From NCBI GenBank assembly GCA_036651955.1, contig JAVVWU010000005.1, forward strand, positions 1,153 to 65,152: a stretch of 64,000 nucleotides of DNA, read 5' to 3'. The stretch comes from Kiritimatiellia bacterium. GTDB lineage: Bacteria; Verrucomicrobiota; Kiritimatiellia; RFP12; DVOR01. The translations under genes and the position numbers were made by a program. Below, piece by piece: positions 6,600-61,013 of this stretch; position 1 is the first letter of the stretch; the number at the start of each line of letters is the position of its first letter. The notes under the pieces are model-generated. The model did no database searches and had not been told where the DNA came from. It saw only the letters and a program-made list of their open reading frames with translations.

Positions 6600-8378
6600 C
6601 TAAGAATCGAGGACATCGGGGGCATATTTGCGAATGACTTCACGACATCTTTCGGCGACTTCAATCGCAGAAGTGACGTCATTCCGACGAAGGGTGTCAA
6701 CGAGACGTTGCATATCGAAATAGGCAATGCGGCAAATGAGTTCTTTGATACGAGGAATAAGGTTCGCGGACATACTCAATCGACGGATCCCCATCCCGAC
6801 CAACAAGATCGCTGCAAGCGGATCTGAAGCCATTTCGCCACAGACACAGACAGGGCGATTATAAGTTTTTGCAGCCAGAACAACTCCGTGTATCATCGAG
6901 AGAATGACCGGATGAAGTGGTTGATAAAGGTGTGCAACCGATTCATTGCCACGATCGACGGCGAAAGTATACTGTACGAGATCATTTGTACCGATAGAAA
7001 AGAATGCGACCTCTTTGGCAAATCGATGTGCTTGAAGCGCGGCAGAGGGAATCTCAATCATGACTCCCGTAGGAACGTCTCGGCGGAAAGGGATACCTTC
7101 TTTTTCAAGTTCTTGTTTACATTCTTCGACAAAAGAATTGCACGCACGTAATTCATCAAGTGTTGCAATCATCGGATACATCATTTCGCACTCACCCACA
7201 ATGGCGGCACGTAGAATTGCACGAATTTGTGCACGGAATGTTTTCAGATTGTTGAGCAGATAACGGACGGAACGATTCCCAAGGAAGGGGTTCGCTTCAC
7301 TGATGGCTTCACGTCCAATCATTTTATCGCCACCGATATCAAGGACGCGCAACGTTGCAGGCTTTCCTTTGCATGCGCGAATGACATCTGAATAGGCGCG
7401 ATACTGTTCTTCTTCAGAAGGTTCGCGTCCAAGACCGATCCATAAATATTCCGTGCGATAAAGTCCGATACCTTCGGCACCATGTTCACTGATAGCATCA
7501 AACCCAACGCTGTGATCGGTATTGGCAAGGAGGGTGACGCGGACGCCGTCGGGGGTTATCGCTGGTTGATCGGCAAGGCGATGACGATGTTCTTGTGCGG
7601 CACGTTGCGAGGCGGTATCCGCCATGAGTGCAGTTTTGATACTTTCATCGGGGTGGTGCCAAAGGAGTCCATGAAACCCGTCTAAGGCGACTTCGTCACC
7701 CACTTGAATCGACTCTAAGCTTTGCCCAATGCCGACGACGGCAGGAACACCAAGCGCACGTGAGAGAATTGTCACGTGCGCGGTGAGAGAGCCTTGCTCT
7801 GTTGCCATACCGCGAATAAAACGACGCGGAAGCGAAACTGCATCTGAAGGGGAAATTGCATCGGCAATAATGATGGACGGTCGATCAATCGCAGGAAGTG
7901 TTCGCTGAGCATCACCTCCCAGAAGATTGTCAATTAAACGGTCGCGCACATCAACGATATCTGCGACACGTTCGCGCAGGTAGGCATCGCCCATACGTTT
8001 CATGATTTCAATCATTGAGTCAAACGTACCTTGAATCGCCCACTCGGCATTGTCATGTTGATTACGGATACTTTTTACAACGGCAGAAATGAAAAAAGTA
8101 TCGTCCAACATCATGAGATGCGAATCGAAAATTCCGGCTTCTGTAGAGGACGCATGCTGTTCTGTTTTTTTTGCAAGGTCGTCAATTTGTGAACGAGAGG
8201 TGTCAAGTGCGGAATAGAACCGTGCAATTTCCGCATTCAATCTTTTGTCGGGAATTTCATAATGTGGAACGGCGCGTTCTTTTTTTGAAACGAACCGAAC
8301 AACGGGCGCAAATACCAATCCACCAGAGGCCGCAAGACCTCGGTATAATTTTGCATGGCTGGTTGCCGAATCACTCAT
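6600..8378 (-). CDS. ptsI: Phosphoenolpyruvate-protein phosphotransferase (PTS enzyme I)
   Basis: 592 aa. It has the phosphohistidine region (GSLTAHVTILSRALGVPAVVG) and PEP-utilising C-domain motifs (GLYRTEYLW, FFSIGTNDLVQY). Confidence 0.9.
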   Translation of the reverse strand: MSDSATSHAKLYRGLAASGGLVFAPVVRFVSKKERAVPHYEIPDKRLNAEIARFYSALDTSRSQIDDLAKKTEQHASSTEAGIFDSHLMMLDDTFFISAVVKSIRNQHDNAEWAIQGTFDSMIEIMKRMGDAYLRERVADIVDVRDRLIDNLLGGDAQRTLPAIDRPSIIIADAISPSDAVSLPRRFIRGMATEQGSLTAHVTILSRALGVPAVVGIGQSLESIQVGDEVALDGFHGLLWHHPDESIKTALMADTASQRAAQEHRHRLADQPAITPDGVRVTLLANTDHSVGFDAISEHGAEGIGLYRTEYLWIGLGREPSEEEQYRAYSDVIRACKGKPATLRVLDIGGDKMIGREAISEANPFLGNRSVRYLLNNLKTFRAQIRAILRAAIVGECEMMYPMIATLDELRACNSFVEECKQELEKEGIPFRRDVPTGVMIEIPSAALQAHRFAKEVAFFSIGTNDLVQYTFAVDRGNESVAHLYQPLHPVILSMIHGVVLAAKTYNRPVCVCGEMASDPLAAILLVGMGIRRLSMSANLIPRIKELICRIAYFDMQRLVDTLRRNDVTSAIEVAERCREVIRKYAPDVLDS

Positions 8379-8686: not shown

Positions 8687-9671
8687 GATTTTGCTCCAGA
8701 GTTTGATAATGTGCAACGATTTGTTCGTCAAGAATGGCGGCAGCATCAATTCCAGACCGGCGCATTTTGTAAGCTGCGGCGGCAGTCTCGACAACATTCA
8801 CGAAGTCACGTCCTGCGGCAACTGGAACCGTTAACCGCTGAACTTTTAATCCGAGAATGTCACAGGTCTTAACATCTGAACCGGTACGGTCGACATCATC
8901 ATCGTTGTTACAACGACGGAGGGAGACGATGAGATCAAGGCGGCTTTCCAGTTTTACAGCAGCAATACCGTAAAGCGTTGGAAGGTGTAGAAAACCGAGC
9001 CCACGAATCTCCATAAAACCACGCATATGATCTGGCGCGGTACCACGCAAATCGCCATGTGCATCAATGGTGAGTAGGGCGATATCATCGGAAATCAGCG
9101 CATTTCCATGACGCACTAAGCCAAGCGCAGTTTCGCTTTTTCCAATTCCGGGATCACCTTCAAGAAGGACTCCCACGCCACCGACATCTACCAGTGTCCC
9201 GTGCATAAGTGCACGTGGTGCAGTGAGGTCATGTAACAGTAGCGATCCACGAGTAATGAGCCCCAGCGTTTTTTGTTTCGTTGTAAACAAAGGGACAGAA
9301 AAGCGATTTGAGAGTTCAAGTGCATCTGCACCAATCGGTTCTTTCGGCTTTCCGCAGAGAATGACACACGGCACGTCGTGCTGGAGCATCTCTTCCCAAC
9401 GGAACTTCCGTTTTTCAGGTTCCAAGGAGTGAAGATACGTTGCTTCCGCACGCCCAAAGACCTGAATTCTCCGATTCGCAAAGAAATCGTAAAAGCCAGT
9501 CAGCGCCAACCCAGGTCGGTGCATGACGGCTTCTTCAATCGGACGGGAGAGCCCTCTTTCTCCAGACAACAATTCTAACTCCAACGCTTCCCGTGAAGCA
9601 TTGTAGAAAGCCTGCACCGTGAGTTTAGGCGTGGTGCGAGGATTGACTGTTGGCTGTTGAGGAGGGCTCAT
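8679..9671 (-). CDS. hprK: HPr kinase/phosphorylase
   Basis: It has the Walker A motif (GDPGIGKSETALGLVRHG) followed by ISDDIA and MEIRGLG. I chose the start at ATG 9671 (MSPPQQ) because the longer ORF runs into hpf. Confidence 0.85.
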   Translation of the reverse strand: MSPPQQPTVNPRTTPKLTVQAFYNASREALELELLSGERGLSRPIEEAVMHRPGLALTGFYDFFANRRIQVFGRAEATYLHSLEPEKRKFRWEEMLQHDVPCVILCGKPKEPIGADALELSNRFSVPLFTTKQKTLGLITRGSLLLHDLTAPRALMHGTLVDVGGVGVLLEGDPGIGKSETALGLVRHGNALISDDIALLTIDAHGDLRGTAPDHMRGFMEIRGLGFLHLPTLYGIAAVKLESRLDLIVSLRRCNNDDDVDRTGSDVKTCDILGLKVQRLTVPVAAGRDFVNVVETAAAAYKMRRSGIDAAAILDEQIVAHYQTLEQNHE

Positions 9672-9696
9672 TCGTTCGCTGTGTTTCTCTTGAGGC

Positions 9697-10026
9697 TTAT
9701 TTAGACGCTTCTGCGGCTTGAGCGGCTTTGCGAGCCGGCTCAACATAAGCTTTCGCGCGTTTTTTGCGGATTTGCGTTTCGACCTTGGCGGCGGCCATAT
9801 CGACTGCGGCACGCATCGAGGTGTCTGTATCTGCAGAACCGACGAAGGTCTCATCTTTACGCTGGGCAATGACTTCAGCAGAGCAAAGCTTGTTTTGGAA
9901 ATCCATCACGACGCGAACAGATTCAACCATCGGGAACGATTCCCCGATTTTTTCTGCGCGCTGTTTCGCGTATTCACGGAAACCTTCGGAAATGTCTTTG
10001 TGACGTGCATTCACTTCTATTGTCAT
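9697..10026 (-). CDS. hpf: Ribosome hibernation promoting factor / RaiA family (short form)
   Basis: 109 aa with the pattern MTIEVNARHKDISEGFREYAKQRAEKI...VRVVMD, typical of sigma-54 modulation protein/HPF. It lies downstream of lptB. Confidence 0.85.
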   Translation of the reverse strand: MTIEVNARHKDISEGFREYAKQRAEKIGESFPMVESVRVVMDFQNKLCSAEVIAQRKDETFVGSADTDTSMRAAVDMAAAKVETQIRKKRAKAYVEPARKAAQAAEASK

Positions 10027-15969: not shown

Positions 15970-16851
15970 TTACGATTCCTGATAAAAAATACGTGAGTGT
16001 GGGGGGATGGAGTGCGTGAGCCAAACGTTCCCTCCAATAATAGAATCATGACCAATTACGGTCTCTCCGCCTAAAATCGTGGCACCGGCATAAATGACTA
16101 CGTGATCCTCAACATTTGGATGACGTTTAATTCCCTTTACGAGATGTCCTTGCTCGTCTTTTTGGAATGAACGCGCACCGAGTGTAACCCCTTGATAAAG
16201 TTTGACGCCTTCACCAATGACACACGTTTCACCAATGACGACACCGGTGCCGTGATCAATGAAAAATCCTTTGCCAATGGTTGCTCCGGGGTGAATGTCA
16301 ATGCCTGTACGGGAATGCGCATACTCACTCATTACGCGAGGAAGGAGATGCACGTCTTGTTGGTAGAGTACATGGGCAATGCGATGCGTTGCGACAGCAA
16401 GAAGTCCGGGGTAGGACATCACAATTTCCATATTGGAATGCGCCGCAGGATCGCCTTCATAGGCGGCAAGAACGTCTTCTTGTAAAAGAGTGCGAAGCTC
16501 CGGGAGTTGTTCAAATAAAAATCGAACGACTGTTTGAGCATGACCCATTCCGTCAAAACCTTCTGGACGCGTATGTTCTAGCACGCGATAGGCTTCAATA
16601 CGAGCAATTTGGTCGGTCAGGACATCGGCAATGCCATGTAATCGTGTTTTGACGGAGACGAGATCTTCGTGGTCAATCGGTTCGTACGTGAGACAGCCGG
16701 GGAAGAGTGCCGAAAGGAGTGCCTTCAGAACGGCGACCATCGCGGCACGTCCCGGAAGATTAACGCCACGCAATGTATTTGCGGCAAGACAGTTCTTGCA
16801 GACAAGTTTACCGGCGAGCGTTTCTAAAAGTTGATCGAAATCGTTAGACAT
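15970..16851 (-). CDS. cysE: Serine O-acetyltransferase
   Basis: It has left-handed beta-helix hexapeptide repeats ([53 protein letters not shown]). The start could be 16851 (ATG) or 16899. Confidence 0.8.
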
Positions 16852-18643
16852 CTTTCTTGTCTCCGGGCGAGAGGCTGAGAATGACGCGATCTGCGCCAAG
16901 GTTACGCAATCCTAAGAGAATCAAAAGATTGCCAATGAGACTTGCCGAATGAGTATGCAATAACGTTGCCTGTAATCCGAAGCGACGACAGAATCCATAA
17001 AAGTCTTTCAGCGTACAATTATGAATGTTGGGCGTATCGTACCATTCGTAGGGGAAGGCGCGCGCCTTCGGCATCCGTCCATGAAAAAGCAACGACAACC
17101 GCATTCCGAGATAACCGAAGTTGGGGAACGCAATCAATGCTGAACGCGCCACACGGAGCAGCTGAGTCATAACGTGTTCGGGGCGCGTAAGGACTTGAAT
17201 AGTATGCGAGATAATGGCGATATCAAAGGCGTTATCGGGGATGAATTTCAAATCATTGTCGATATCTGCCATGACGACGTTGAGTCCGGCATGAAGCGCT
17301 TCAATCACCTTGGGAAGATTCCGTTCCAATCCGATACAGTGCGCTTTCTGTCGAAGGGCAACTTGTTTAAGCAACGTTCCGTCACCACACCCGATATCAA
17401 GAACGCGTGCATTGATCGGAATATGACGAATGAAAGCGTCAAAAGCTTCGGTCTCTTCGTGATTGAGCGAAGACGGATCATCGGCACGTGTTGCCGTCAA
17501 GAAGGCTCGCATAACCAGTTTAAGCTCATCAATATGCGTGAGGAATGCATCGTGTCCCGCTGGCGCGTACAGATGACAATAGGAGATGTCTTTACGTTCG
17601 GTAATACACGCCTGCACAAATCGCCGTGCTTGTGCACGTGTGAAGAGCCAGTCGCCGCTGAGGCTGACTAATAGTAGTTTTGCTTGGACATGACGGAGTG
17701 CGGCTTCAAGGCTTCCATAAATTTCCTCGGGATCATAATCATCAAGTGCGCGCGTAATATGGAGGTAACTATTGGCATCAAACCGTTTGACGAATTTTTG
17801 CCCTTGGTATTCCAAGTAAGACTCGATTTCAAAGTAAGTGCGAAAATCGCGCGAAGCTTGTGCGTGAAAATCTTTTGTCTCATTGACCCACTCTTCACGT
17901 TTACCACGCCCAAATTTATCGTCCATGGACGCTTGGGAAAGATAGGTGATATGCGCTAAGCGACGGGCATTTGCGAGACCGGCTGCCGGCTTTGTCCCGG
18001 TGTAGTAGTCGCCATGCCGCCAGTTGGGATCTTGAATAATGGCATGACGCGCGACAATGTCAAAGGCTAAGGCTTGTGTATTGAGCGCGGCGGCAGAGGC
18101 TACGAGCAAACATTTCTCCATGTCTTCGGGGTGACGAATTGCCCATTCAAGGGCTTGCATCCCGCCAAAGCTACCGCCGACAACGGCCGCAATGCGGCGA
18201 AATCCGAGTTGCCGCACGACGGATCGATGAACGGCAACAATATCACCGACAGTCATTTCCGGAAAGGTTGATCCATACGGTTTCCCCGTTCGTGGATCAA
18301 TGGAAGACGGACCTGTTGTTCCTGAACAGCCGCCGAGAATATTGGCGCAGAGAACGCAAAAACGATCGGTATCAATTCCGGCGAGAGGACCAATCATTCC
18401 TTCCCACCACCCGCTCGGCTTATCCGTTTTTGGGTTTTCTCCGGGACGATACCCAATTACGTGCGCATCACCTGTTAAGGCATGACAAATAAAAAGAACA
18501 TTACTGCCATCGGCTTTGGGCACGCCTACCATTTCATAGCGGACGTTAATTTCGGGCAGAATGCCGCCTTTTTCCAACCGCCAACCGCCGGTTGGTGTTG
18601 TTATCTTAAGGTCATGCGGTTCTACAATGCCGATAGTACTCAA
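16844..18643 (-). CDS. metX: Homoserine O-acetyltransferase fused to a MetW methyltransferase-like domain
   Basis: The N-terminal ~380 aa are MetX ([28 protein letters not shown]). The C-terminal ~200 aa are MetW ([42 protein letters not shown]). The start is TTG, preceded by AGAGAGGA. Confidence 0.85.
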
Positions 18644-18752: not shown

Positions 18753-19487
18753 TCAGCTGTTGTGAAGTCCACGGGCAAGGACTAAAACGTAAACCGTTTT
18801 AGCTCCGGCAGCTTTCAGCAAATGCGCACACGCATGACACGTTGCGCCAGTCGTCATAACATCGTCAATGAGGAGTAATGTTTGACCGCGAATGTGGCGT
18901 GGATGTTCGGTGCGATAGGCGGCAAGCGCATTGACGAGGCGTTCTTTACGTCGTAGATGTGTTTGGGAAAGAATCCCCGTATCAACACGCCGAAGCAGTT
19001 TTTCACGGCAGGGAAGGGTAAGCACTTTTCCCAATGCGGCGGCTAAAAGACTGGCTTGGTTATACCCGCGATGTCGTCGTTTGCGCGGGAGCATCGGAAT
19101 GGGAACAAGTGCATCAATGTGAATGTTTTTGCCTTCGATTTGCTCAATATACGCCGCTTGCATCCACAAAATTAAATCGTCGAGTAACCAGATTCCGCGA
19201 TGATACTTGAAACAGTGAATCAGATCGCGAATGGCGCCTGCATAGCGCGTGGCAACAATGGCACGTTCAAATGCCGGCCGATGCTGTAAACATTCGTCAC
19301 AAATGAAGTCGGGACCTTCTGAAAGTGTGGACTCCGCTCCGCAAATTGAACAGCTCGGATTGCGAACGACAGGAATGCGTTCAAAACATTCTTGGCAAAT
19401 ATGCCCATGCTTTCCTGCTGGACGTTGGCAGAAAAAACAGTCACGTGGATAGAGAAGATCAAGCAACCATGAAAACGTGAACTTCAT
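18753..19487 (-). CDS. comF: ComF-family phosphoribosyltransferase-like protein
   Basis: It has an N-terminal Cys4 cluster (CFFC...CQEC, CSIC...CDEC) and the PRTase motif LLLIDDVMTTGAT. Confidence 0.75.
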   Translation of the reverse strand: MKFTFSWLLDLLYPRDCFFCQRPAGKHGHICQECFERIPVVRNPSCSICGAESTLSEGPDFICDECLQHRPAFERAIVATRYAGAIRDLIHCFKYHRGIWLLDDLILWMQAAYIEQIEGKNIHIDALVPIPMLPRKRRHRGYNQASLLAAALGKVLTLPCREKLLRRVDTGILSQTHLRRKERLVNALAAYRTEHPRHIRGQTLLLIDDVMTTGATCHACAHLLKAAGAKTVYVLVLARGLHNS

Positions 19488-20041
19488 GGCTGAAGTCCGA
19501 AGAGACCAAAAAGAAGCATTCCTAAGCCGGCACCGAGTAAAATGATTAGAATCGGATTAAGACGGCGCAGTCGCATCAAACTGAAAAGCCCTGCGGCGAA
19601 AAGAAGGGAAGTGACACGAAGCCCTTCTTGTGGAACCCAAAGTACACGTGCAAGCAACGTAATTGCGGCGGCTCCAATCAGTCCGACAATGACAGGGGCT
19701 GCACCTTGGAGCGCAGACTGTACGATCCACGAACGCAGAAGGGAGTGAAAAAGACCGGCGATGAGCAAGATGATAATGAGAGAAGGAAGTACGACACCGC
19801 CGGTGGAGCAGAGACTTCCAAGAATACCGGCGGTGTGCATACCGGCGAACGTTGAAATGTTAATCGCGAACGGTCCGGGAGTACTTTCGGCAATGCCGAC
19901 AAATTCAATGAATTGATCGCGTGTCATCCATGCGTAATGTTCAATGACTTCACGTTGAATGAGTGGAATCATGGCATATCCGCCACCGAGCGTAAAAAGC
20001 CCAATCTTGAAGAACGTCCAAAAGAGCGTCCAGTAAATCAT
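19484..20041 (-). CDS. Chromate transporter (CHR) family protein, short single-domain form
   Basis: The ATG at 20041 gives MIYWTLFWTFFKIGLFTLGGGYAMIPLIQREV...ESTPGPFAIN. Its start overlaps the stop of the partner gene (ATGA). Confidence 0.75.
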   Translation of the reverse strand: MIYWTLFWTFFKIGLFTLGGGYAMIPLIQREVIEHYAWMTRDQFIEFVGIAESTPGPFAINISTFAGMHTAGILGSLCSTGGVVLPSLIIILLIAGLFHSLLRSWIVQSALQGAAPVIVGLIGAAAITLLARVLWVPQEGLRVTSLLFAAGLFSLMRLRRLNPILIILLGAGLGMLLFGLFGLQP

Positions 20042-29503: not shown

Positions 29504-29761
29504 TTAACGACGGAGACCAAGATCAGCAACAATCTTCTTGTACGATTCTTCGTTGGTGCGCTTGAGGTAATCCAGCAGCGTACGACGATTGTTAACCATA
29601 CGAATCAAACCATAACGAGAAGAGTTATCCTTCTTGTTAATCTTGAGGTGCTCGGTCAACTGCTCAATCTTCTTGGTCAGTGTCGCGACTTGGACTTCGC
29701 TAGATCCGGTATCACGTTCGTGACGTTGGAATTGCTCGCGAATTTTGCTCTTATCAACCAT
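29504..29761 (-). CDS. rpsO: 30S ribosomal protein S15
   Basis: 85 aa with FQRHERDTGSSEVQVA and RRTLLDYLKRTNEESYKKIVADLGLRR, a canonical S15 sequence. Confidence 0.95.
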   Translation of the reverse strand: MVDKSKIREQFQRHERDTGSSEVQVATLTKKIEQLTEHLKINKKDNSSRYGLIRMVNNRRTLLDYLKRTNEESYKKIVADLGLRR

Positions 29762-29980: not shown

Positions 29981-30347
29981 ATTCTGCATAAGTCCACATA
30001 AGAGGTCTGAATCGAAACGACACTTATGCAGAATGGCACAGTTGATGGCATGGTGGGGAGGCGGTGCGCCTCAGTGAGGTAAGCCCTCTACCTCACTGAG
30101 GTACGAGGTTAGGGTCAGTGAGGTACGAGCTCTACCTCAGTGAGGTGCGCAATCGAACCTTTTGGAATATCTCTTGAAATCTTCAGTAGGTATCAATAAA
30201 GCACAGAGAATCAATAGCTAAAAAGTTCGCTTGCGCGGACAGTCTGCTGTAATTTAGGAAAGCTCCCTCTCGCTCTTCCAAAGCGGAATATTTCAGGAGG
30301 CTAATTCTGCATAAGTGTTGTTAAGAAACAGAGACTCTATTTGAATT
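29981..30347 (+). repeat. Composite intergenic repeat element, copy A (paralogous to 61014-61378)
   Basis: Long near-identical blocks are shared with copy B. They are the ATTCTGCATAAGT / ACTTATGCAGAAT inverted pair, the CCTCAGTGAGGTA palindrome array, TTTTGGAATATCTCTTGAAATCTTC-GTAGGTATCAATAA, and a distal ATTCTGCATAAGTGTTGTTAAGAAACA block. Confidence 0.8.
30069..30146. repeat. Array of four TACCTCA-N-TGAGGTA palindromes with centres exactly 22 bp apart (copy A)
   Basis: Palindrome centres are at 30074, 30096, 30118 and 30140. The array can also be read as two tandem hairpins (30069-30101 with a 13-bp stem, and 30116-30142 with a 10-bp stem and one mismatch), each with a 7-nt loop. Confidence 0.8.
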
Positions 30348-30573: not shown

Positions 30574-30777
30574 ATGGGAACAGGTCGTACCCTTAATAAG
30601 AAGCCGGCAACACGTCCGGTCAAGTCTGTTGGTGAACGTCGTCGTCGTGATGCTGTTCAGCGCAAGCGTTTGATTGCATTTGGCATGGATGAAGTTGTTG
30701 TTGCAAAACTCAACGCCGTGCAGATTCGTGATTTTTTGCGTACGCCAGCGAAGACTAAAGCCGCTTTCGCGCAGTAA
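30574..30777 (+). CDS. Small highly basic hypothetical protein (67 aa)
   Basis: The ATG at 30574 is preceded by GGAGGA. The protein begins MGTGRTLNKKPATRPVKSVGERRRRDAVQRKRL. A strong terminator follows the gene. Confidence 0.5.
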   Translation: MGTGRTLNKKPATRPVKSVGERRRRDAVQRKRLIAFGMDEVVVAKLNAVQIRDFLRTPAKTKAAFAQ

Positions 30778-30800
30778 TTTGCGGGTAGCGTTAAGCAACA

Positions 30801-30836
30801 GCACATCCGCACTGCGGGTGTGCTTTGTTTTGTCTT
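30801..30836 (+). terminator. Rho-independent terminator after the small basic ORF
   Basis: GCACATCCGC-act-GCGGGTGTGC forms a 10-bp stem with one G-U pair, followed by TTTGTTTTGTCTT. Confidence 0.65.
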
Positions 30837-30850
30837 AAAAGGAGGTTGCA

Positions 30851-32191
30851 ATGTCACGTGATTTTCTTGACCGATTGGCTGCACGGCGGAAGTTTGGTAT
30901 TTGTCCGGGGCTTGAAACGATGCGTGCACTGTGTGCGGCATTGGGGAATCCGGAACGTGAGTTTGCAGTTATTCATATTGCCGGGACGAATGGCAAGGGA
31001 AGTGTGGCGGCGATTTGCGAGTCGGCTTTACGTACGATGGGGTTGCCCGTGGCGCGTTACACCTCGCCGCATTTGGTACGTGTGAATGAGCGCTTTGTCA
31101 TTCATGGGGAGCCGGTGGATGATGAGACGTTGACGTCGGCATTGGATCGTGTGGAGGCGGTCTGTGTGCAGACGGGCTTGGAACCGACCTTTTTTGAAGT
31201 TTTGACCGCATGTGCATGGGTTCTTTTTCGTGATGCTGGGATTCGCTTGGTGGTTGCTGAAGTGGGAATGGGCGGACGTTGGGACGCGACGAACGTTATT
31301 GAGTCTCCTCTTGTTTCGGTGATTACGCACGTGGCGCTCGATCATTGTGCCATTTTAGGTGATACGATTGAGGCAATCGCAGGAGAGAAGGCGGGAATTA
31401 TAAAAGAGCGGCGTCCGGTCGTAATTGGTGCCATGGATCCACGCGCACGCGCGGTCCTTCTGAAGGTGGCGGCAGAACGTCATGCGCCGCTTCATGATGC
31501 GGCAGAGGAAATTCGTGTGACGGTGGCGCGTCGAACCATTCATGGGCAGACACTTCAATGTTCTTCGGCAACGTGTGATTATCCGGCGGCATTGACGCGG
31601 TTGGCAGGATCGTATCAGGTGGAGAATGCGGCAACGGCACTATGTGCGTTGGAGCGGCTGAATGAACAAGGACTTGAAATTGCGCCGAAAGCGTTTTCCG
31701 AGGGTATGCGTACGGTGGTTTGGCAGGGGCGGTGCCAATTGATTGCTTCGGATCCTACGACCTTTTTGGATGGCGGACATAATCCAGATGCGTTAAGAGC
31801 TTTACGTGAAGCGTTGAAGTCGATGAACCTTCGCCGCAATGTGGCATTGGTGTGTGGCTTTTGTGAGGATAAGGCGGTGAAGGACGCATTGCGCGAGATT
31901 GCGCCAATCGTTTCTGCGGCGTGGACGGTACCGATTGCGAATGGGCGCAGTTTGCCTTCATCGGCGGTGGCGGAAGCAGCGCGTGGCGCAGGCATTCCTA
32001 CCGTTACGGCAATGGCGTCGGTTTCAGAGGCGATAGAGGCTGCGACGGAATGGGCGCAGGAGAATCGCGGAACGGTGCTGATTTGCGGTTCACTTTTCTT
32101 AGTCGGAGAGGTGTTAATTCTCCGTGGAGATGCCGAGGGCGATACGCTTGATCCGAGTGAGCAGGTGCGGGCGACACGCAAGCATGAGTGA
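30851..32191 (+). CDS. folC: Bifunctional folylpolyglutamate synthase / dihydrofolate synthase
   Basis: 446 aa with the P-loop HIAGTNGKGS and Mur-ligase-family motifs (VAEVGMGGRWDATN, FLDGGHNPDA). The RBS is AAAGGAGG. Confidence 0.9.
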   Translation: MSRDFLDRLAARRKFGICPGLETMRALCAALGNPEREFAVIHIAGTNGKGSVAAICESALRTMGLPVARYTSPHLVRVNERFVIHGEPVDDETLTSALDRVEAVCVQTGLEPTFFEVLTACAWVLFRDAGIRLVVAEVGMGGRWDATNVIESPLVSVITHVALDHCAILGDTIEAIAGEKAGIIKERRPVVIGAMDPRARAVLLKVAAERHAPLHDAAEEIRVTVARRTIHGQTLQCSSATCDYPAALTRLAGSYQVENAATALCALERLNEQGLEIAPKAFSEGMRTVVWQGRCQLIASDPTTFLDGGHNPDALRALREALKSMNLRRNVALVCGFCEDKAVKDALREIAPIVSAAWTVPIANGRSLPSSAVAEAARGAGIPTVTAMASVSEAIEAATEWAQENRGTVLICGSLFLVGEVLILRGDAEGDTLDPSEQVRATRKHE

Positions 32192-34039: not shown

Positions 34040-35038
34040 ATGCTGATTTATCAGACGGAAGATGGTTTGACCAAAATAGATGTTAATCTGCAGGACGAAA
34101 CTGTATGGCTTAGTCAAGAACAAATGGCAGACTTGTTTCAGAGAAATAAATCTACGATTTCAAGACACATTAAAATTTTTTTTGAATTTGGTGAACTGGA
34201 TGTAAAAGTGGTTGTTGCGTAATTTGCAACAACCACTCCACATGGTGCGATGGATGGAAAAACGCAAAGCAGCATGACAAGATTTTACAATCTCGATGTT
34301 ATTATCTCCGTTGGTTATCGTGTGAAATCACAACGTGGTGTGCAGTTTCGCATATGGGCAACAAGCATCCTGAAAGAGTACATCAAAAAAGGCTTTGCAA
34401 TGGATGATGACCGCCTGAAAGAACTGGGCGGTGGCGGATATTTTAGAGAACTGTTGGAACGTATTCGCGATATTAGAGCATCGGAAAAGGTCTTTTATCG
34501 ACAGGTGCTTGAAATTTATGCAACAAGCGTGGACTACAATCCAAAAGCAGAGCTCTCCATCCAATTTTTCAAGCGCGTACAGAATGAAATCCACTATGCC
34601 GTTTCTGGCGAAACTGCCGCGGAGGTGATTTATCACCGTGCCGATGCAGAAAAAGACTTTATGGGACTTATGACCTTTTCGGGAGAACAGCCAACGCTTC
34701 GGGAAGCAAAAATTGCTAAGAATTATCTGAACGAGAAAGAATTGCGTTCAATGGGTCAGCTTGTTTCTGGATATCTTGATTTCGCTGAAAGGCAGGCGGA
34801 AAGAGAAGTGCCGATGACAATGGAAGGTTGGGCAAAGCACCTTGATGGAATTTTGACAGCAACGGGTGAAAAACTTCTTACTGGAAGTGGCACGGTCAGC
34901 CACTTGCAGGCTGTAGAAAAGGCTCAGATTGAATTTAAGAAATATAAAGCAAAAACACTGAGCAATGTGGAAAAAGACTATTTGGAGAGCATCAAACTAC
35001 TGGAACAAAAAGGGAAGAGTGGAAAGACGTTATTCTGA
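34040..35038 (+). pseudogene. RhuM-family protein gene interrupted by an in-frame TAA (34220-34222)
   Basis: MLIYQTEDGLTKIDVNLQDETVWLSQEQMADLFQ...VVA-stop-FATTTPHGAMDGKTQSSMTRFYNLDVIISVGYRVKSQRGVQFRIWAT reads as a continuous RhuM-like sequence in one frame (both ORFs are in frame 2). A TTG start at 33956 is also possible. Confidence 0.6.
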
Positions 35039-35061
35039 AAATGTGAATCTGTGGAGGAAGT

Positions 35062-35574
35062 ATGATATTGGAAACAGAAAGACTGTATCTACGAGAAATG
35101 AAGCAATCTGATTTTGAAACTTTGTGCAACATATTACAGGATGAAGATACGATGTATGCGTATGAAGGAGCATTCAGTGATAAAGAAGTTCAAGAATGGC
35201 TGGATAGGCAGATTGGTCGTTATCATCAATGGAACTTCGGTTTATGGGCAGTAATTTTGAAAGAAACGGATGAGATGGTTGGTCAAGGTGGGCTTACAAT
35301 ACAACCGTGGAAAGAAAATGAAGTACTTGAAATAGGATATCTTTTCGAACGTCAATATTGGCATAATGGCTACGCTACTGAAGCTGCAATCGCTTGTAAA
35401 AAGTATGCTTTTGAAATATTGGGTGCAGATGAAGTTTGCTCAATTATTAGAGATTCAAATATAGCATCTCAGAATGTGGCTATTAGAAATGGCATGGTAG
35501 TGGAAAGTACGTGGACAAAGCATTATAGAGGTGTGATAATGCCACATTATCGTTATGTTGTATATCACGAATAA
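35062..35574 (+). CDS. GNAT-family N-acetyltransferase (RimJ/RimL-like)
   Basis: 170 aa with TERLYLREMKQSDFE, LEIGYLFERQYWHNGYATEAA and NIASQNVAIRNGM, typical of Acetyltransf_3-type GNATs. Confidence 0.8.
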   Translation: MILETERLYLREMKQSDFETLCNILQDEDTMYAYEGAFSDKEVQEWLDRQIGRYHQWNFGLWAVILKETDEMVGQGGLTIQPWKENEVLEIGYLFERQYWHNGYATEAAIACKKYAFEILGADEVCSIIRDSNIASQNVAIRNGMVVESTWTKHYRGVIMPHYRYVVYHE

Positions 35575-39683: not shown

Positions 39684-39740
39684 GTAGAGGTAATGTTTGA
39701 ATGGGACATTTAGAGTCCCCCTTTGAGTAAGGATACGACG

Positions 39741-41036
39741 ATGGCCAAGTTCAGATACAAGGCAGTAGATTCTCAGGGTAAAGAAGTCTTGAGCACGGTT
39801 GAGGCAGATTCTCAAGGTGCTGCGATTGAAAAAATTCGCGCGATGCAATTGACCCCCAAGGCAATTGGCATGGTAAAGGAAGAATCCGCGGATGAAAGCG
39901 TGCCGGCGAAATCTTCGTTTGCTACGAAAGCAAAGAAGCCGAGTGGCGGCTTGGTGTTTTCAACGCCCAAGTTCTTGCGTGGTCGCGTAAAGACAAAAGA
40001 TTTAATGGTTTTGACACGCCAACTTGCAACGTTGGTGGATGCCGGTTTGCCGCTGACGCGTGGATTGCGTGTGCTTCAACGGCAAACGGCGAATGAGTCG
40101 CTCAAAGAAGCATTGACTGGAATGCTTGAAACGGTAGAGACCGGTAATACATTTTCGGAATCGTTGGGAAACTACCCGAAGATTTTCAATCACCTTTACG
40201 TCAATATGGTCAAGGCGGGTGAAGCGGGTGGCGTATTGGAAACCGTTCTCAATCGTCTGGCTGAATTTATGGAGAAGGCGGAAAAGATTAAGAATAAGGT
40301 CAAAGGTGCAATGACCTATCCGGTGGTCGTTCTTTGCGCGGCATTGGGCATTGTAGTCTTTCTGATGCTGGCGGTGATTCCTAAGTTCCAGCAGATCTTC
40401 AATGATTTGATGGGCGGTCAAGGAATGCCGGCATTGACACAGTTTGTAATCAATCTTTCCGGATGGATGCAGAACTACTGGATGGTGATTTTCCCTGCAA
40501 TCTTTGGTTCGATTATTCTGATTAAAATGTTCTTCAAAACGCCCAAGGGGTCGTATATTCAAGATGTCATTGCGCTTCGCGCTCCAGTCTTTGGCTCATT
40601 GACGCAAAAGACGATTGTTGCGCGTTTGACGCGTACACTTGGAACGTTGCTTGCTTCTGGCGTTCCGGTGCTTCAAGCACTTTCGATTGTCAAGGATACC
40701 ACGGGCAATCAAGTGATTAGTAATGCGATTCAGTCTGTTCACGAAAGTGTGAAGGAAGGTGAAGGCATGACGGCACCGCTGGGCGCCTGTGGCGTCTTTC
40801 CTCCGATGGTGGTTTCCATGGTGGAAGTCGGTGAAGAAACGGGCGCACTGTCTGAAATGCTTCTCCGTGTCGCAAACACGTATGACGATGAAGTGGACAA
40901 TGCGGTGGCTTCAATGACTTCTATCATTGAACCGATTATGATTATTTTCCTCGCGGTGATTGTAGGCGGTATCGTAATCGCAATGTTTATGCCACTCATC
41001 ACCATTATTGGAACGATTGGTCAACAGGCTCAATAA
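39741..41036 (+). CDS. gspF: Type II secretion / type IV pilus platform protein (GspF/PilC family)
   Basis: It starts MAKFRYKAVDSQGKEV. Two GspF repeats are present (LTRQLATLVDAGLPLTRGL and LTRTLGTLLASGVPVLQAL) with three TM segments. Confidence 0.85.
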   Translation: MAKFRYKAVDSQGKEVLSTVEADSQGAAIEKIRAMQLTPKAIGMVKEESADESVPAKSSFATKAKKPSGGLVFSTPKFLRGRVKTKDLMVLTRQLATLVDAGLPLTRGLRVLQRQTANESLKEALTGMLETVETGNTFSESLGNYPKIFNHLYVNMVKAGEAGGVLETVLNRLAEFMEKAEKIKNKVKGAMTYPVVVLCAALGIVVFLMLAVIPKFQQIFNDLMGGQGMPALTQFVINLSGWMQNYWMVIFPAIFGSIILIKMFFKTPKGSYIQDVIALRAPVFGSLTQKTIVARLTRTLGTLLASGVPVLQALSIVKDTTGNQVISNAIQSVHESVKEGEGMTAPLGACGVFPPMVVSMVEVGEETGALSEMLLRVANTYDDEVDNAVASMTSIIEPIMIIFLAVIVGGIVIAMFMPLITIIGTIGQQAQ

Positions 41037-41046
41037 GGGCATTTGT

Positions 41047-41760
41047 ATGAAACGCGGATTTACACTGATTGAATTGCTTGTGGTCATTGTCATTATCGGC
41101 ATTCTTGTTTCCGGTGTCTTTATGATGATGCGAGCCGGTGGTGATAAAGCAGGGATTGCGCAAACCGTTACGAAGGTTCACGCGATTGCAACGCTTTTGG
41201 AAGAGTACAAAGCACAGTACGGGAACTATCCGATTGTGACAGATCGTGATGGAAACGGATGTGCGAAGCTTGAATTTTCATTCCTGTGTGATCCGGGAAG
41301 CGATGCGACTGGTTCGTCGCCTGTTGTTTTTGGGCTCTTCTCGCATTTTATCCCACGTGCGACAACAATTGATCAGGAAGCCGAAGATTCCATGAGGGGA
41401 TATTATGAACGGCAGTTTTCGAATCCGGAAAAGGGTTCCATTTGGGAATCCGAGTATACGGCTGGTTCCAGTATGGAAAAGATTGCCAGAGGAGAAGCGG
41501 CAGATCCACGTCTTGCTTTGGTGAATCGCGCCTTTCGGCGACTTAAGAAAGACGGAGTTGTTTCTGCTGGGAGTTCCGTCAATATTGAAACGGGGCGCGA
41601 AACGTACCATGCGACAGCGTCAGATTCTTGGGGACGTGCGTTGATGTATCGAATGGATGGATCGAATGGCGAGATTGTTTCCTATGGTCCTGATGGAAAA
41701 TATGGGACTTCGGATGATATTACGAGTGCCGGTATGGGAAATGATGAAGATGAGGACTGA
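41047..41760 (+). CDS. Prepilin-type protein, GspG-like with a large internal insertion and acidic tail
   Basis: The class III signal is MKRG|FTLIELLVVIVIIGIL. The C-terminal part (DSWGRALMYR...SYGPDGKYGTSDDI) is GspG-like. The protein ends GNDEDED. Confidence 0.7.
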   Translation: MKRGFTLIELLVVIVIIGILVSGVFMMMRAGGDKAGIAQTVTKVHAIATLLEEYKAQYGNYPIVTDRDGNGCAKLEFSFLCDPGSDATGSSPVVFGLFSHFIPRATTIDQEAEDSMRGYYERQFSNPEKGSIWESEYTAGSSMEKIARGEAADPRLALVNRAFRRLKKDGVVSAGSSVNIETGRETYHATASDSWGRALMYRMDGSNGEIVSYGPDGKYGTSDDITSAGMGNDEDED

Positions 41761-41773
41761 AAGGAACGCAACG

Positions 41774-42379
41774 ATGTTGAAGAATAAGAGTTCTCTGTCT
41801 CATGTCCGTGGCTTTACGTTGATTGAAGTCCTCGTGGTGATTGTGATTATTGCCATTCTGGGCGCCTCCTCTTTTGGTGGATATGCGCATTTTATGGAGA
41901 AGGCACGTCAGAAAAACGCCATGGATGTGTGCGAACAAATTAAGACGGCATGGACGAGTTATCATCGAGAGATTGGTTTTTGGCCGGACAAGGTGAGTAA
42001 AAACGGCGTTCATCAAATGGACACTAAAATGTGTGAAATTATTGGGAAAGCTAATTTACTCGATGTCCTCTACATTGATGATAGTCAACAGACTACAGGG
42101 CTGAATCGGAATAAGGACAAAGAATCCGAACTTAAGTATGGTCTATTGGATCCGATTGGACTGAAACGGTTCAAGCGAGGACAGACGGGGAAAAAAGTGA
42201 CAGATCATCTCTATCAATTTGTTCTCGATGTCAATGAGGATGGCATTGTGAATGGGGACGATGGATTGCCTGCAAAAGTTTCCAAGGGGCGTACCCTTCG
42301 TGGTGATATCGTTGTTTGGTGCTGGCCTGAAGACGATGAGGCTAAGGCTGACGGCGAGACGTATGCTCAAAGTTGGTAA
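41774..42379 (+). CDS. Prepilin-type N-terminal cleavage/methylation protein (pseudopilin)
   Basis: The leader is MLKNKSSLSHVRG|FTLIEVLVVIVIIAILG. The protein is 201 aa. Confidence 0.65.
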   Translation: MLKNKSSLSHVRGFTLIEVLVVIVIIAILGASSFGGYAHFMEKARQKNAMDVCEQIKTAWTSYHREIGFWPDKVSKNGVHQMDTKMCEIIGKANLLDVLYIDDSQQTTGLNRNKDKESELKYGLLDPIGLKRFKRGQTGKKVTDHLYQFVLDVNEDGIVNGDDGLPAKVSKGRTLRGDIVVWCWPEDDEAKADGETYAQSW

Positions 42380-42391
42380 AGGAGTGCTCTT

Positions 42392-43015
42392 ATGTTTTCG
42401 TTGCGTTCTAAATCTTCGCATAGTGGCTTTACACTCATTGAACTGTTGGTCGTGATCGCGATTTTGGCGACATTGATTGGTTTAGGTGCCGTAGGAATTT
42501 CAAAGACGATGAAAGGTGCGGATGAAACGCGCCGCAATGCGTTTGCAAAAACGGTCGAATCGGCGCTGATGGCGTACAAGAATGAAACGGGGAGTTATCC
42601 ACTGGCGGCTGATAATGATGCGGATAAAAATGGGCAGATTCATTACGGTTCGGTGAGTAATAATAATGCCGATAAGCCCAATGCAAAAGTTTTGTTAACT
42701 TTATTTGGGCGTAACGAGAGTGGGCGTCGTGAGGCAACGAAGCGCGCTTATATTACGGACAGCTCCGATCTTTATGTTTACAAAGGGAAGCGGATCCGAA
42801 AGCTTGATGAGGCGTTCCAATCGGGCGGAGTTTCCGCTGATGATATGATTGGGTTTAAGATTATGATGGGAAAAACGACGAGTACGAAGTATAAGAAAAT
42901 GAGTGGATCGCACGCATTTTCACCGATTAAAATCTCATTTGATCTTGAATTAGATTCCTATTCGGTTTCCGTTCCAAGTGATGGGCAGTTTAATCAAGTG
43001 ATTCAACTGAATTGA
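42392..43015 (+). CDS. Prepilin-type N-terminal cleavage/methylation protein (pseudopilin)
   Basis: The leader is MFSLRSKSSHSG|FTLIELLVVIAILATLIG. The protein is 207 aa. Confidence 0.65.
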   Translation: MFSLRSKSSHSGFTLIELLVVIAILATLIGLGAVGISKTMKGADETRRNAFAKTVESALMAYKNETGSYPLAADNDADKNGQIHYGSVSNNNADKPNAKVLLTLFGRNESGRREATKRAYITDSSDLYVYKGKRIRKLDEAFQSGGVSADDMIGFKIMMGKTTSTKYKKMSGSHAFSPIKISFDLELDSYSVSVPSDGQFNQVIQLN

Positions 43016-43023
43016 GGTCTGAT

Positions 43024-43824
43024 ATGAAGAAGCGCGGCTTTACATTGATTGAACTCCTGATTGTGATTGGCATCGCAGCGATGTTAATCACAATGGCGTC
43101 AACGGGGTTCTTCGGTGCGTTGCGTCAGGAAAGTGTCACGAAGTCACGGAATCAATTGCGTGATGTCATCCTTTTGGCTCGGCAACAGGCGTGTATTCTG
43201 GGGCAGCCACACGTGGTCGTCTGTTGGAATAGTGATACGTCGGTGGTTGTTGGTAATGATACGCAAAAAGCGAAGCAGGGGAAATTTGCACTCTTTCAAT
43301 ATGTCGGGCAGGTCTGGCGAAAAGGTAATGAGCTGTATGTTCCTTTTGGGCTTCAACGAGATGTATTGTCGACGCTTAAAAAGGGATCGCGCGTGATAAG
43401 TCTTGCAGATGTAGACGCAGACAAATTTGCAAAGTTGACAGATATTATGGCGGATGCGTCTAAGACGGCAGATCAAATTGCAGAGGACAAGAGTTATTCT
43501 GCCACGATTAAATTCGACTATTTGGTCGGAGGCGCGGAGGGCACTTCCAATTGGGAACCGCAAATGTACAAGGTCGCAGATGTGGATGGATCGTTGAGAG
43601 CCGTTACGAAGCGTGGAATCCCGTTGGCTGTTCGTGCTTCTCAAACGTACACGCTTCCTAAACTTTATGCTTTTGGTAGTGATCGTCAAGTCTTTGTCTT
43701 TGCTCCTGATGGACGTGTCACGACCGCAGGGTCGGTCACGGCGCAGCACAGTGTCGCGAAAGGTTCTAAAAACGCCACATTTACGCTCACGGTGGATGAC
43801 AAGGGCTCAGTCACATTGAAATAG
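43024..43824 (+). CDS. Prepilin-type protein, GspH-like by size and position
   Basis: The leader is MKKRG|FTLIELLIVIGIAAMLI. The protein is about 266 aa. A TTG start at 43012 is also possible. Confidence 0.6.
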   Translation: MKKRGFTLIELLIVIGIAAMLITMASTGFFGALRQESVTKSRNQLRDVILLARQQACILGQPHVVVCWNSDTSVVVGNDTQKAKQGKFALFQYVGQVWRKGNELYVPFGLQRDVLSTLKKGSRVISLADVDADKFAKLTDIMADASKTADQIAEDKSYSATIKFDYLVGGAEGTSNWEPQMYKVADVDGSLRAVTKRGIPLAVRASQTYTLPKLYAFGSDRQVFVFAPDGRVTTAGSVTAQHSVAKGSKNATFTLTVDDKGSVTLK

Positions 43825-43833
43825 GAAGCGGTG

Positions 43834-44337
43834 ATGAAACGTTCTTTTCTTTTGAAACTTCGCGATGGCTTCTCTTTGATCGAAGTGAATATGGCGATCT
43901 TTGTCTTGGCTGGCGGTGCGCTTGCGCTGTTGGGACTGTTTCCCCTCGGGTTACGGGAAAGTCTCGCTTCTCGTGGAGAAATGCGTGTCGCTGCCTTTGC
44001 CGAACAGTTTATGGGCGCGGCGCGTATTGCTGTCAACGATCCTTCCGTCGTCGATATCCCGTCACTTCGTAAAGTCATGCAAGACAGTTTCAATTTCAAA
44101 TTGAGTGAGAACGTTGGAAAAAATGACGATCAAAATGCCGAGCAGGATACGAATTCAGACGTGTACTATCGCGGATGGATTTTGAAGACAACCGCATACG
44201 ATTTAGGTAACGCGAGAGAAATGGTTGAGGTCGGAGTACAGGTGACGACAGAAAACTGGAAGCAAAATAAACGCGCGCTTATTTCTGCCCCTGTCTATGC
44301 GGTCAATGTCATTATTGATACGAAGAACGCTCATTGA
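43834..44337 (+). CDS. Prepilin-type protein, GspI-like by position
   Basis: The leader is MKRSFLLKLRDG|FSLIEVNMAIFVLAGGALALLG. The protein is about 167 aa. Confidence 0.55.
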   Translation: MKRSFLLKLRDGFSLIEVNMAIFVLAGGALALLGLFPLGLRESLASRGEMRVAAFAEQFMGAARIAVNDPSVVDIPSLRKVMQDSFNFKLSENVGKNDDQNAEQDTNSDVYYRGWILKTTAYDLGNAREMVEVGVQVTTENWKQNKRALISAPVYAVNVIIDTKNAH

Positions 44338-44356
44338 GTGGGGATGAGGAAGTGAT

Positions 44357-45046
44357 ATGAAACGTTTTAGAAAACATTCCACACATCAAGGGTTCTCATT
44401 GATTGAGATTCTTGTGGCAATGACCATCTTGACGGTGATTGTTTTGATTGTTGCGCGTATTTTTCAACAAACAGGGCTTGCATGGTCTTTGGGATTGCGT
44501 CGCGCAGATGCGCAATCGGTGACGCGTGCCGTATTGGGATCAATTACACGTGATCTCTCAATGATGGTTGACCCGTGTAATTTTGTTTCACCAGATGCCA
44601 CGTTGCAGGAAAAGGCATTAAGTGATTCCATTGGACTATCGGCAGGGAATCCGATTAGTAGCGGGCTTGATTTTTGGATTCTTCGTCCAACGAATGATCC
44701 CGTTGCAACGTTGGAAAAAGCAGAAAAAAGAGAGCTTGTCCATATTGTTTATGCAGGGAGTTCTGGCGTTGTCAATCGTACGGAAACGGTGCTTGATGGC
44801 GCCTCCATTTCGACGGAGTATAAAATCGGGAAAGGAAGCGTTAAGTTTGAAAGCTTAAAGGTAAACTTCCCACAAAAGACATTCTCTTCATTCTATGAAG
44901 ATGAACCGGGTGTCAAAATTACGGTTAAGCCCGAAACGCCGCCCGATATCAATGACTATGAAATTTCTGTGGCTTCATCAGGTCCCGATGGTGAATGGGG
45001 AACGGATGATGATATTCGCCCGTGGGTGAAGGGGGAGGACAAGTAA
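44357..45046 (+). CDS. Prepilin-type protein, GspJ-like by position
   Basis: The leader is MKRFRKHSTHQG|FSLIEILVAMTILTVIVLIV. The protein is 229 aa. Confidence 0.6.
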   Translation: MKRFRKHSTHQGFSLIEILVAMTILTVIVLIVARIFQQTGLAWSLGLRRADAQSVTRAVLGSITRDLSMMVDPCNFVSPDATLQEKALSDSIGLSAGNPISSGLDFWILRPTNDPVATLEKAEKRELVHIVYAGSSGVVNRTETVLDGASISTEYKIGKGSVKFESLKVNFPQKTFSSFYEDEPGVKITVKPETPPDINDYEISVASSGPDGEWGTDDDIRPWVKGEDK

Positions 45047-45562
45047 ATGAAACGTTCAACTCTCTCAATTGCCAATAAAGGTTTTACACTCATTGAATTA
45101 CTCGTTGTAATTGTGATTATCGGAATCCTCATTTCTGCTTTTGCAATCTCAACCGCCGCTGCTCGTGAAAATGCAAAGATTGCTAAGGCGACGGCTGAAA
45201 GTCGTGAATTAGGAAATGCGATTCGTCTCTTTTGTATGACACAATACGATACTGCCATTGATGCCAAGCATGATCCTATGCGCGATTTGGGATTGAGTGA
45301 TGGCTTGAATGATGCCGGCTCTTCAATCGTCAATATGTTGACAAAGCCGAACTCGAATAATGGTAACACCGTTTACTATAATGCTTCTGACAAGATGATT
45401 CGCAAGAATAATCTCTGTGACCCCTGGGGGAATCCCTACAAGATAAGAGTCAAGAAAGTGCTTCCGCAAGATTCGAAGACATCGAACGATTACACCATTA
45501 TTGTCCCCTTTGAAGGGCGTCATCGTGCTCTTGAACCTATGAATGTGCCAGTCGGGAATTAA
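45047..45562 (+). CDS. gspG: GspG-like major pseudopilin
   Basis: The leader is MKRSTLSIANKG|FTLIELLVVIVIIGILI, followed by ARENAKIAKATAESRELGNAIRLF and the GspG hallmark DPWGNPYKIRV. Confidence 0.75.
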   Translation: MKRSTLSIANKGFTLIELLVVIVIIGILISAFAISTAAARENAKIAKATAESRELGNAIRLFCMTQYDTAIDAKHDPMRDLGLSDGLNDAGSSIVNMLTKPNSNNGNTVYYNASDKMIRKNNLCDPWGNPYKIRVKKVLPQDSKTSNDYTIIVPFEGRHRALEPMNVPVGN

Positions 45563-60818: not shown

Positions 60819-61013
60819 GACTAAAATTCCTTCCAAGTGTGTTTGCGGCGTAATTCGCGAGAGAATAGCAAATGCTTATTCGAATAGCAAATCTTTCGAT
60901 CACAAAACGTGCTTCGTTAATAGCTTTTGTGCTGAAACTCCTGTGGAGTTCTGATAAATATTCCGAACTTCCATACGCGCGCGTCATTCAATCTCTTCTC
61001 TGTCGCTCCTCCT

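Follow-up and report, generated by a model that had tools for sequence, protein, structure and literature searches.

Phased palindromes in a multi-copy intergenic element of a Kiritimatiellia bacterium: candidate docking sites for a dimeric DNA-binding protein

Dispersed repeats of the REP/BIME, BOX and Correia types, and phased arrays of protein-binding sites, are the described systems that come closest to the element reported here. BIMEs are bound by IHF and gyrase, and REPs typically lie at the 3' ends of genes. Iterons are direct repeats of 17-22 bp that sit beside a rep gene, an AT-rich origin and DnaA boxes. In its arrangement of sites our element is comparable to Fur-family 7-1-7 boxes, to lambda OR1-3 between divergent promoters and to the 22-bp iterons of R6K and pPS10. 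To our knowledge, no DNA target is known for the HU-HIG clade (PF14848) of the HU/IHF superfamily. Members of this clade are described as expanding and diverging rapidly and as possibly dealing with mobile DNA, the description drew mainly on Bacteroidetes and not on the PVC group, and its authors proposed a role against mobile elements and judged the proteins unlikely to be sequence-specific transcription factors (PMC5499826).

The element is present in two copies, A and B, in a 64,000-nucleotide stretch of a Kiritimatiellia genome (contig JAVVWU010000005.1; hereafter the window), and its core is an array of palindromic sites. Our preferred explanation, to which we give a probability of about 0.45, is that these are phased sites at which a dimeric protein would bind double-stranded DNA, set in a cassette whose geometry is fixed and whose copies have come to lie in several divergent promoter regions; the candidate ligand is an HU-HIG protein.

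The palindrome array and the element around it

The array of copy A (30067-30147) consists of four 15-bp dyad sites of the form 7-N-7, named S1 to S4, separated by 7-bp linkers, so that the period is 22 bp. The array of copy B (61099-61179) has the same layout, with S1 at 61099-61113, S2 at 61121-61135, S3 at 61143-61157 and S4 at 61165-61179. Both were characterized by direct reading, pattern scans, TRF and a count of variable positions. The initial annotation had placed the palindrome centres in a strict 22-bp period, those of copy A at 30074, 30096, 30118 and 30140 and those of copy B at 61106, 61128, 61150 and 61172; on reading both loci the centres are exact, and the period is borne out at both copies by reading and by TRF, which reports period 22 with 3.5 copies at each locus. 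The same annotation described four TACCTCA-N-TGAGGTA palindromes. Four sites are indeed in place, but their symmetry was overstated, because in copy A only S2 (30089-30103, TACCTCA-C-TGAGGTA) is a perfect palindrome. S1 (30067-30081, CGCCTCA-G-TGAGGTA) has two mismatches to the consensus, S4 (30133-30147, TACCTCA-G-TGAGGTG) has one, in an outer position, and S3 (30111-30125, AGGGTCA-G-TGAGGTA) is essentially a half-site, with four mismatches in a degenerate left half and an intact right half. Two differences between the copies also read as annotated: the first linker is AGCCCTC in copy A and CAGCCAC in copy B, and S4 is centred on G at 30140 in copy A but on C at 61172 in copy B. Scanning the window with the consensus and allowing up to two mismatches gave 6 sites (0.05 expected), and the core CTCASTGAGG gave 12 strand-matches (0.15 expected), all of them within copies A and B.

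Around the array extends a modular intergenic element of about 360 bp, of which it forms the core; with stops in all six frames, this element has no coding potential. Copy A extends from 29983 to 30345 and copy B from 61016 to 61377, both on the + strand (nhmmer E = 1e-139 and 8e-150, respectively). At its left end is TCTGCATAAGT-N27/28-ACTTATGCAGA, in which the 11-mer TCTGCATAAGT (site 1; 29983-29993 in copy A, + strand) forms an inverted repeat with its reverse complement ACTTATGCAGA (site 2), 39 bp away from start to start. Site 2 and the conserved ATGGCACAG that follows it (together 30022-30041) are found in all four known copies, including the truncated copy in locus L034. Next, some 25 nt of variable sequence, in most copies rich in G, lead to S1. 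To the right of S4 lie the 23-mer TTTTGGAATATCTCTTGAAATCT (30160-30182, + strand), which is identical in every copy that reaches that far; a variable segment (30214-30303), of which the first ~20 nt are partly conserved and the other ~70 nt show near-random identity between copies; and a right block, ATTCTGCATAAGTGTTGTTAAGAAACA-N-CTCTATTT, whose ATTCTGCATAAGTGTTGTTAAGAAACA carries the third 11-mer (site 3). The right block occupies 30304-30342 in copy A (+ strand; repeat family D6) and 61336-61373 in copy B (+ strand), where it was recognized from exact 11-mer matches, repeat families and spacing. The 11-mer has six exact matches in the window, three per copy and none elsewhere, compared with 0.86 expected. 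The 23-mer also holds a weak sigma-54-like motif, TGGAAT-N5-TTGAAA (30163-30179).

Distances between these blocks are kept with precision. Site 3, whose ATTCTGCATAAGTGTTGTTAAGAAACA is 100% identical in copies A and B, is an inverted repeat of site 2, and the two start 284 bp (~27 helical turns) apart, or 285 bp in the left-half variant found in L001. The distance from site 2 to S1 is fixed at 48 bp, the 23-mer begins a fixed 28 bp past the start of the last CTCASTGAGG core, and GGAATATC (23-mer) is 142 bp from site 3 in all three right-half variants, across filler that is essentially unrelated. Block-wise conservation combined with exact spacing argues for selection on the architecture rather than neutral decay. 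Within the variable segment of copy B, 30 nt (61280-61309) are 80% identical to positions 9928-9957 of the window, where a hairpin and T-run resembling a terminator lie between hprK and lptB.

At least four copies of the element are known in this species: the two in the window, a right half upstream of purA (loci L019, L020 and L029) and the truncated copy of L034. Copy A lies between rpsO (29504-29761, - strand) and a small ORF (30574-30777, + strand), which is followed by a folC-like gene (30851-32191, + strand); copy B has a long GreA-like gene (58662-60836, - strand) on one side and purC (61558-62472, + strand) on the other. No full purA copy was recovered, every purA contig ending within the element. 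L034 is a different copy, situated between gltA and a PF14848 gene that is followed by topA, and its order is gltA (- strand), site 1, site 2, GGCACAG, a G-rich stretch, S1, S2, S3 and then unique DNA. All known copies are in divergent intergenic regions, upstream of genes, and in a constant orientation relative to their neighbours.

Searches with proteins of the window retrieved contigs of several assemblies of this species. In at least seven assemblies, contigs terminate inside the element, and its copies resemble mosaics of one another. For example, the left half of one copy is joined to the right half of another in L001 (2457-2840; gltA side to purC side), and left and right halves of different copies are joined in L019 (1900-2300) and L020 (1-235; rpsO side to purA side). 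These joined half-copies are either products of recombination between copies or assembly chimeras. The element breaks metagenome assemblies of this species and probably mis-joins them, which matters for users of metagenome-assembled genomes. Between two assemblies of this species (L029:1-45 and the reverse strand of L019), the purA copy is not the same in the variable segment that adjoins site 3 on its upstream side; L029 also has TTCCTGCATAAGT there in place of TTTCTGCATAAGT.

We considered and rejected the idea that copies A and B bound a 31-kb mobile island, because the interior consists of housekeeping genes and further copies exist elsewhere. The remainder of the window is also made up of housekeeping genes, and among its ORFs there is no transposase, recombinase, rpoN or sigma-54 activator gene. 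Several other features of the window deserve mention. The small ORF that is the first gene downstream of copy A encodes a basic protein (67 aa from the second ATG) without a family match; it is called as a gene in L018, and a clean intrinsic terminator follows it at 30800-30824. The GreA-like protein, 724 aa in length and much extended at its N terminus, belongs to the Chlamydia/PVC fusion type (NF004969). At 41051-45118, after a gene for T2SS protein F (39723-41036), five paralogous prepilin-type N-terminal segments (coding for GFTLIELLVVI) occur in a row of small genes that looks like a pseudopilin cluster. An M60-like peptidase is spread over two overlapping ORFs (1354-2661 and 2552-3631), possibly through a frameshift or sequencing error, and genes for a RhuM-family protein and a GNAT acetyltransferase lie amid housekeeping genes at 34250-35574.

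Distribution of the motif and phased arrays in related Kiritimatiellia

The initial annotation suggested that a genome search with the motif might define a regulon. The motif proved to be clustered in the element: in the ~80 kb of this species that could be read, window and other loci together, the palindrome and its core are confined to element copies. Because the motif is always within copies of one multi-copy element, it does not mark a classical dispersed regulon. The operator and regulon picture as first drawn is therefore not supported, since the motif never stands alone in an unrelated promoter and is absent from the nearest species. Homologues of PurC and PurA carry the names Kiritimatiellia or Kiritimatiellae; PurC of the closest other species is no more than 88% identical, and at the loci of species with 83-88% PurC identity the motif is missing and other palindromes are present at the same period. 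Neither blastn nor nhmmer matched the element in related-species loci, the profile hitting only the two window copies. Scans of public genomes with element patterns gave no match, and a metagenome scan gave two chance matches (L009 and L010), so the element is known only from assemblies of one species. The literature held no match for the motif and nothing relevant on Kiritimatiellia and palindromes. A riboswitch or regulon for purines or folate, brought to mind by the downstream genes purC, purA and folC, was rejected: there was no match to the ZTP or THF riboswitch, the identity between copies is too high, and rpsO, the greA-like gene, gltA and the HU-like gene are unrelated to purines.

A comparison with relatives had been proposed as a means of telling DNA sites from RNA. 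It yielded no orthologous element, but it did uncover other palindromes at a 22-bp period, some with symmetric double changes. TRF found 12 arrays of period 22 in ~277 kb of Kiritimatiellia loci, compared with 1, 4, 2 and 2 arrays of periods 20, 21, 23 and 24. When phased palindromes were scanned for under strict criteria, four arrays of period 22 came up, against none in 50 kb of E. coli or in shuffled sequences. Each related species has a palindrome of its own, and the dispersed arrays of L011, L030, L031 and L040/L041 have 3-4 palindromic units each. In L011, GAGATACG-C-CGTATCTC is repeated as four units in each of three dispersed copies within 21 kb (1427-1510, 9638-9720 and 19478-19560). 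The palindrome of L031 and L032 is GAAACCCGTACGGGTTTC, and L031 has arrays at 7929-8008 and 17651-17741; L030, with TACCCCCCAAGGGTA, has an array at 3520-3590, and L040/L041 has one of period 23 at 1474-1575. L014 has six units of AGTTTGT-T-ACAAACT plus CAAATCC (16223-16348), and a further family of 22-bp arrays is found in L015-L017.

In the arrays of period 22, palindrome and linker always add up to 22 bp: 15+7 in the window, 17+5 in L011, 18+4 in L031 and 15+7 in L014. In the last unit of L014 the sequence is AGTTTCT-A-AGAAACT instead of AGTTTGT-T-ACAAACT, a symmetric double change that keeps the phase, and L011 has another, also in phase, from GAGATACG..CGTATCTC to GTGATACG..CGTATCAC (GTGA...TCAC). 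The constant sum and the symmetric double changes argue that the units are independent dyads on double-stranded DNA, with helical phase as the constraint. Different evidence comes from L030 and L032, whose outer units are complementary to each other and not self-palindromic. A similar relationship exists in the window, where the departures of S1 and S4 from the consensus complement each other and their pairing runs 3-5 bp past the palindromes. Both observations are better accounted for by a hairpin or cruciform than by dimer sites that are independent of one another.

Related loci showed other peculiarities. A ~100-nt tract of alternating CG/CA often precedes the arrays; such tracts tend to form Z-DNA. 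Beside the array in L012 (16220-16640) and L013 (16220-16600), a segment of ~230 bp is inverted between the two strains, with one breakpoint inside a palindromic unit and a second, different array of 22-23 bp on the far side. Between L015 (8700-8790) and L016/L017 (8540-8610), TAGGCT is replaced by TAAGTT in all four units while PurC is identical, which is concerted evolution of the repeat units. Long tandem runs of 8/16-nt units (CAAACTTCTAAACCTC) occur at L030:3618-3778 and at L031:7320-7420 and 18150-18190, immediately upstream of promoter-like TATACT boxes.

Protein-binding sites, RNA structure or selfish repeat

Variation among the copies bears on what the palindromes do. We counted it in eight array sequences, a small set that comes from metagenome-assembled genomes and whose copies look mosaic. 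None of the 40 half-site core positions is variable, compared with 2 of 4 centres, 2 of 16 outer positions and 5 of 21 linker positions (P = 0.006 for the split between centres and cores). The centre substitutions are C>G in S4 of copy A and C>A in S2 of L034; each creates a mismatch in either hairpin model and leaves the dyad intact. As in a set of operators, the dyad half-sites are more constrained than the centres and spacers, and this is the pattern that would be expected of sites contacted by a dimer through its half-sites. Two observations go against an array of dimer sites: S3 is only a half-site, and isolated sites are absent, unlike in a normal regulon.

The initial annotation offered an operator array and a structured RNA as alternatives. 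In the RNA reading, which we consider improbable, the element would encode a small RNA present in several copies or serve as a common 5' leader, S1 to S4 would form two hairpins or one long one, and site 2 would act as a switch by pairing with either of two partners, site 1 and site 3. The two-hairpin fold that was proposed does exist, with 13 bp in S1:S2 and, in S3:S4, 11 bp in copy B and 10 bp plus a mismatch in copy A; the fold of minimum free energy is a single long hairpin, in which S1 pairs with S4 and S2 with S3. The folds are very stable relative to shuffled sequences (z = -4.5 for the array region and, on the + strand, -5.8 and -6.4 for the full element), the S1:S4 extension includes G.U pairs that are valid on the + strand only, the three-way complementarity of sites 1, 2 and 3 resembles a set of alternative helices, and a conserved gene with divergent flanks is often seen among multi-copy small-RNA genes. 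However, the - strand folds equally well or better (z = -7.8 and -6.7), and roughly equal folding of the two strands is what nested inverted repeats in DNA would give, unlike the strand asymmetry of an RNA gene. There are no compensatory changes among the eight array sequences, the only stem substitutions being the mismatching centre bases, and the arms of a stem need not themselves be palindromes. Rfam gave no match at the gathering threshold in the window, and permissive scans (E <= 10) of both intergenic regions returned only chance matches to microRNA hairpins. No sigma-70-like promoter or intrinsic terminator was found around the array, and exact conservation of length in variable filler is unusual for RNA. 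Taken together, the invariant cores, the dyad-preserving centre changes, the 22-bp period that relatives keep with palindromes of other sequence and length, their symmetric double changes, the lack of strand preference and the lack of an Rfam match lean towards DNA and protein rather than RNA, the regulon part of the operator proposal aside. Very improbable, in our view, is a sigma-54 enhancer, in which the palindromes would be activator sites at -49 to -115 of TGGAAT-N5-TTGAAA, or an invertible promoter switch, in which sites 2 and 3, as inverted repeats of 15-19 bp, would flank an invertible segment of 270 bp. Direct reading shows GG and TTG in the invariant 23-mer, spaced as in a sigma-54 promoter, with phased dyad sites upstream of it, and the inverted repeats are perfect over 15 bp and 284 bp apart. 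Against this, the -12 position reads GA and not GC, neither rpoN nor an activator gene is present in the window, all nine contigs that cross or enter the segment have the same orientation, and no recombinase gene is nearby in the window. A second possible sigma-54 promoter, at the TGGCAC...GGCA motif, was rejected because its GG-to-GC spacing differs between copies (11, 10 and 9 nt in three of them).

A selfish or structural dispersed repeat, similar to REP/BIME, REPIN, BOX or Correia elements, is a less likely explanation of the palindromes. They would then be hairpins of single-stranded DNA or a cruciform, used for mobilization or for absorbing supercoils without a dedicated regulatory role, and the element would have spread by transposition in trans or by recombination or gene conversion. 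This account overlaps with our preferred one as to origin and differs in what the palindromes do. It suits the multiple near-identical, mosaic-like copies that end the contigs of at least seven assemblies, and the denser species-specific families of relatives, such as the three copies in 21 kb of L011. Unit number varies even between near-identical strains (2-3 units of the AGTTTGT-T-ACAAACT array in L012, about 1.5 in L013 and six in L014), and homology between L031 and L032 breaks inside an array. The mutually complementary outer units of L030 and L032 and the extra S1:S4 pairing speak for it too, and the CG/CA tracts beside the arrays of relatives would fit a module of non-standard DNA structure between divergent promoters. 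What it accounts for poorly is the lack of terminal inverted repeats and target-site duplications at the homology boundaries, the absence of a transposase or RAYT gene in the window (no PF01797-like gene is found among its ORFs) and of GTAG adjoining the palindromes of copies A and B, and the placement of all known copies, which lie ahead of genes in divergent regions and are oriented alike. Nor does it sit well with the strongly block-wise conservation and its exact spacing, and a pure hairpin model leaves unexplained why the period stays at 22 bp across stems and loops of differing length. Should the element prove to be no more than a selfish repeat, it would be a repeat family that is new, though ordinary.

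A candidate binder and comparison with known systems

In our preferred explanation, S1 to S4 would be recognition sites for a dimeric DNA-binding protein with dyad symmetry, and a period of about two helical turns would line up all the bound dimers along the same helix face. The array would form part of a nucleoprotein scaffold, the ~360-bp cassette, together with the three copies of the TCTGCATAAGT motif at their conserved distances. As candidate binder we propose a member of the HU-HIG clade, a fast-evolving branch of the HU/IHF superfamily, and its binding may organize or regulate the flanking promoters or the local DNA topology. That a protein binds here, which protein it is, and how binding affects promoters or topology, we infer.

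The HU-HIG proteins were suggested by their gene positions. In L034, a gene for a 237-aa HU-DNA_bdg/HU-HIG protein (PF14848/PF18291) starts 158 nt past the centre of S3, so that S1 to S3 lie 158-202 nt upstream of its ATG, and topA follows. In L012-L014 the array, which is unrelated to ours, is also directly upstream of a PF14848 gene, with its nearest unit 96 nt from the ATG. The two proteins are only 31% identical, and two diverged PF14848 genes, each located after its own 22-bp array, provide a lead to the cognate protein. Fast divergence of HU-HIG proteins would match sites that are species-specific. On the strength of this adjacency in two lineages, which we noticed after the fact, HU-HIG is the leading candidate for the binder. 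Synteny of gltA and the HU-like gene is not conserved in relatives, and a tblastn search of plasmids with the HU-like protein gave no match. We regard as doubtful, and offer as speculation, a wider proposal in which HU-HIG proteins would be architectural, bind DNA in a sequence-specific way and co-evolve with palindromes that differ among species and are phased at 22 bp (3-6 units) in many Kiritimatiellia promoter regions. These would constitute a previously undescribed, fast-evolving system for nucleoid organization, DNA-topology sensing or gene regulation, in which one array would autoregulate an HU-HIG-topA operon. If the element is a protein-docking scaffold, it would provide the first candidate DNA target for the large HU-HIG clade, and it would explain why arrays of 22-bp-phased palindromes that differ among species are found by housekeeping promoters in a poorly studied PVC lineage.

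By tests of membership, the element does not qualify as a REP/BIME, a MITE, an iteron, an inverton or a member of any Rfam family. It resembles REP/BIME, BOX and Correia repeats in being non-coding, multi-copy, modular, intergenic and based on palindromes, and in combining a species-specific sequence with an architecture common to relatives and a unit number that varies among strains. As for copy number, at least four copies are known, and assemblies break in the element. Unlike REP/BIME, its unit is 22 bp (a 15-bp dyad and a 7-bp linker) in strict phase; GTAG, terminal inverted repeats and target duplications are lacking and no RAYT gene was seen in the window; and it occupies divergent promoter regions in constant orientation, with spacing that is fixed across unrelated filler. 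It departs from MITEs in having no matching termini or target-site duplications at the homology boundaries, its inverted repeats being internal. Unlike operators, its sites never occur singly in unrelated promoters within the ~80 kb readable, and their sequence is not conserved in the nearest species. The 22-bp period matches that of iterons, but here the units are palindromic, the neighbours are rpsO, the greA-like gene, purC, purA and gltA, and neither a rep gene nor an AT-rich origin of the iteron type is present at the arrays. With phased operator and iteron arrays it shares 7-N-7 dyads spaced about two helical turns from centre to centre, with three or four sites between divergent genes, and with phased operator arrays also half-sites that are fixed while the centre base and linkers are free.
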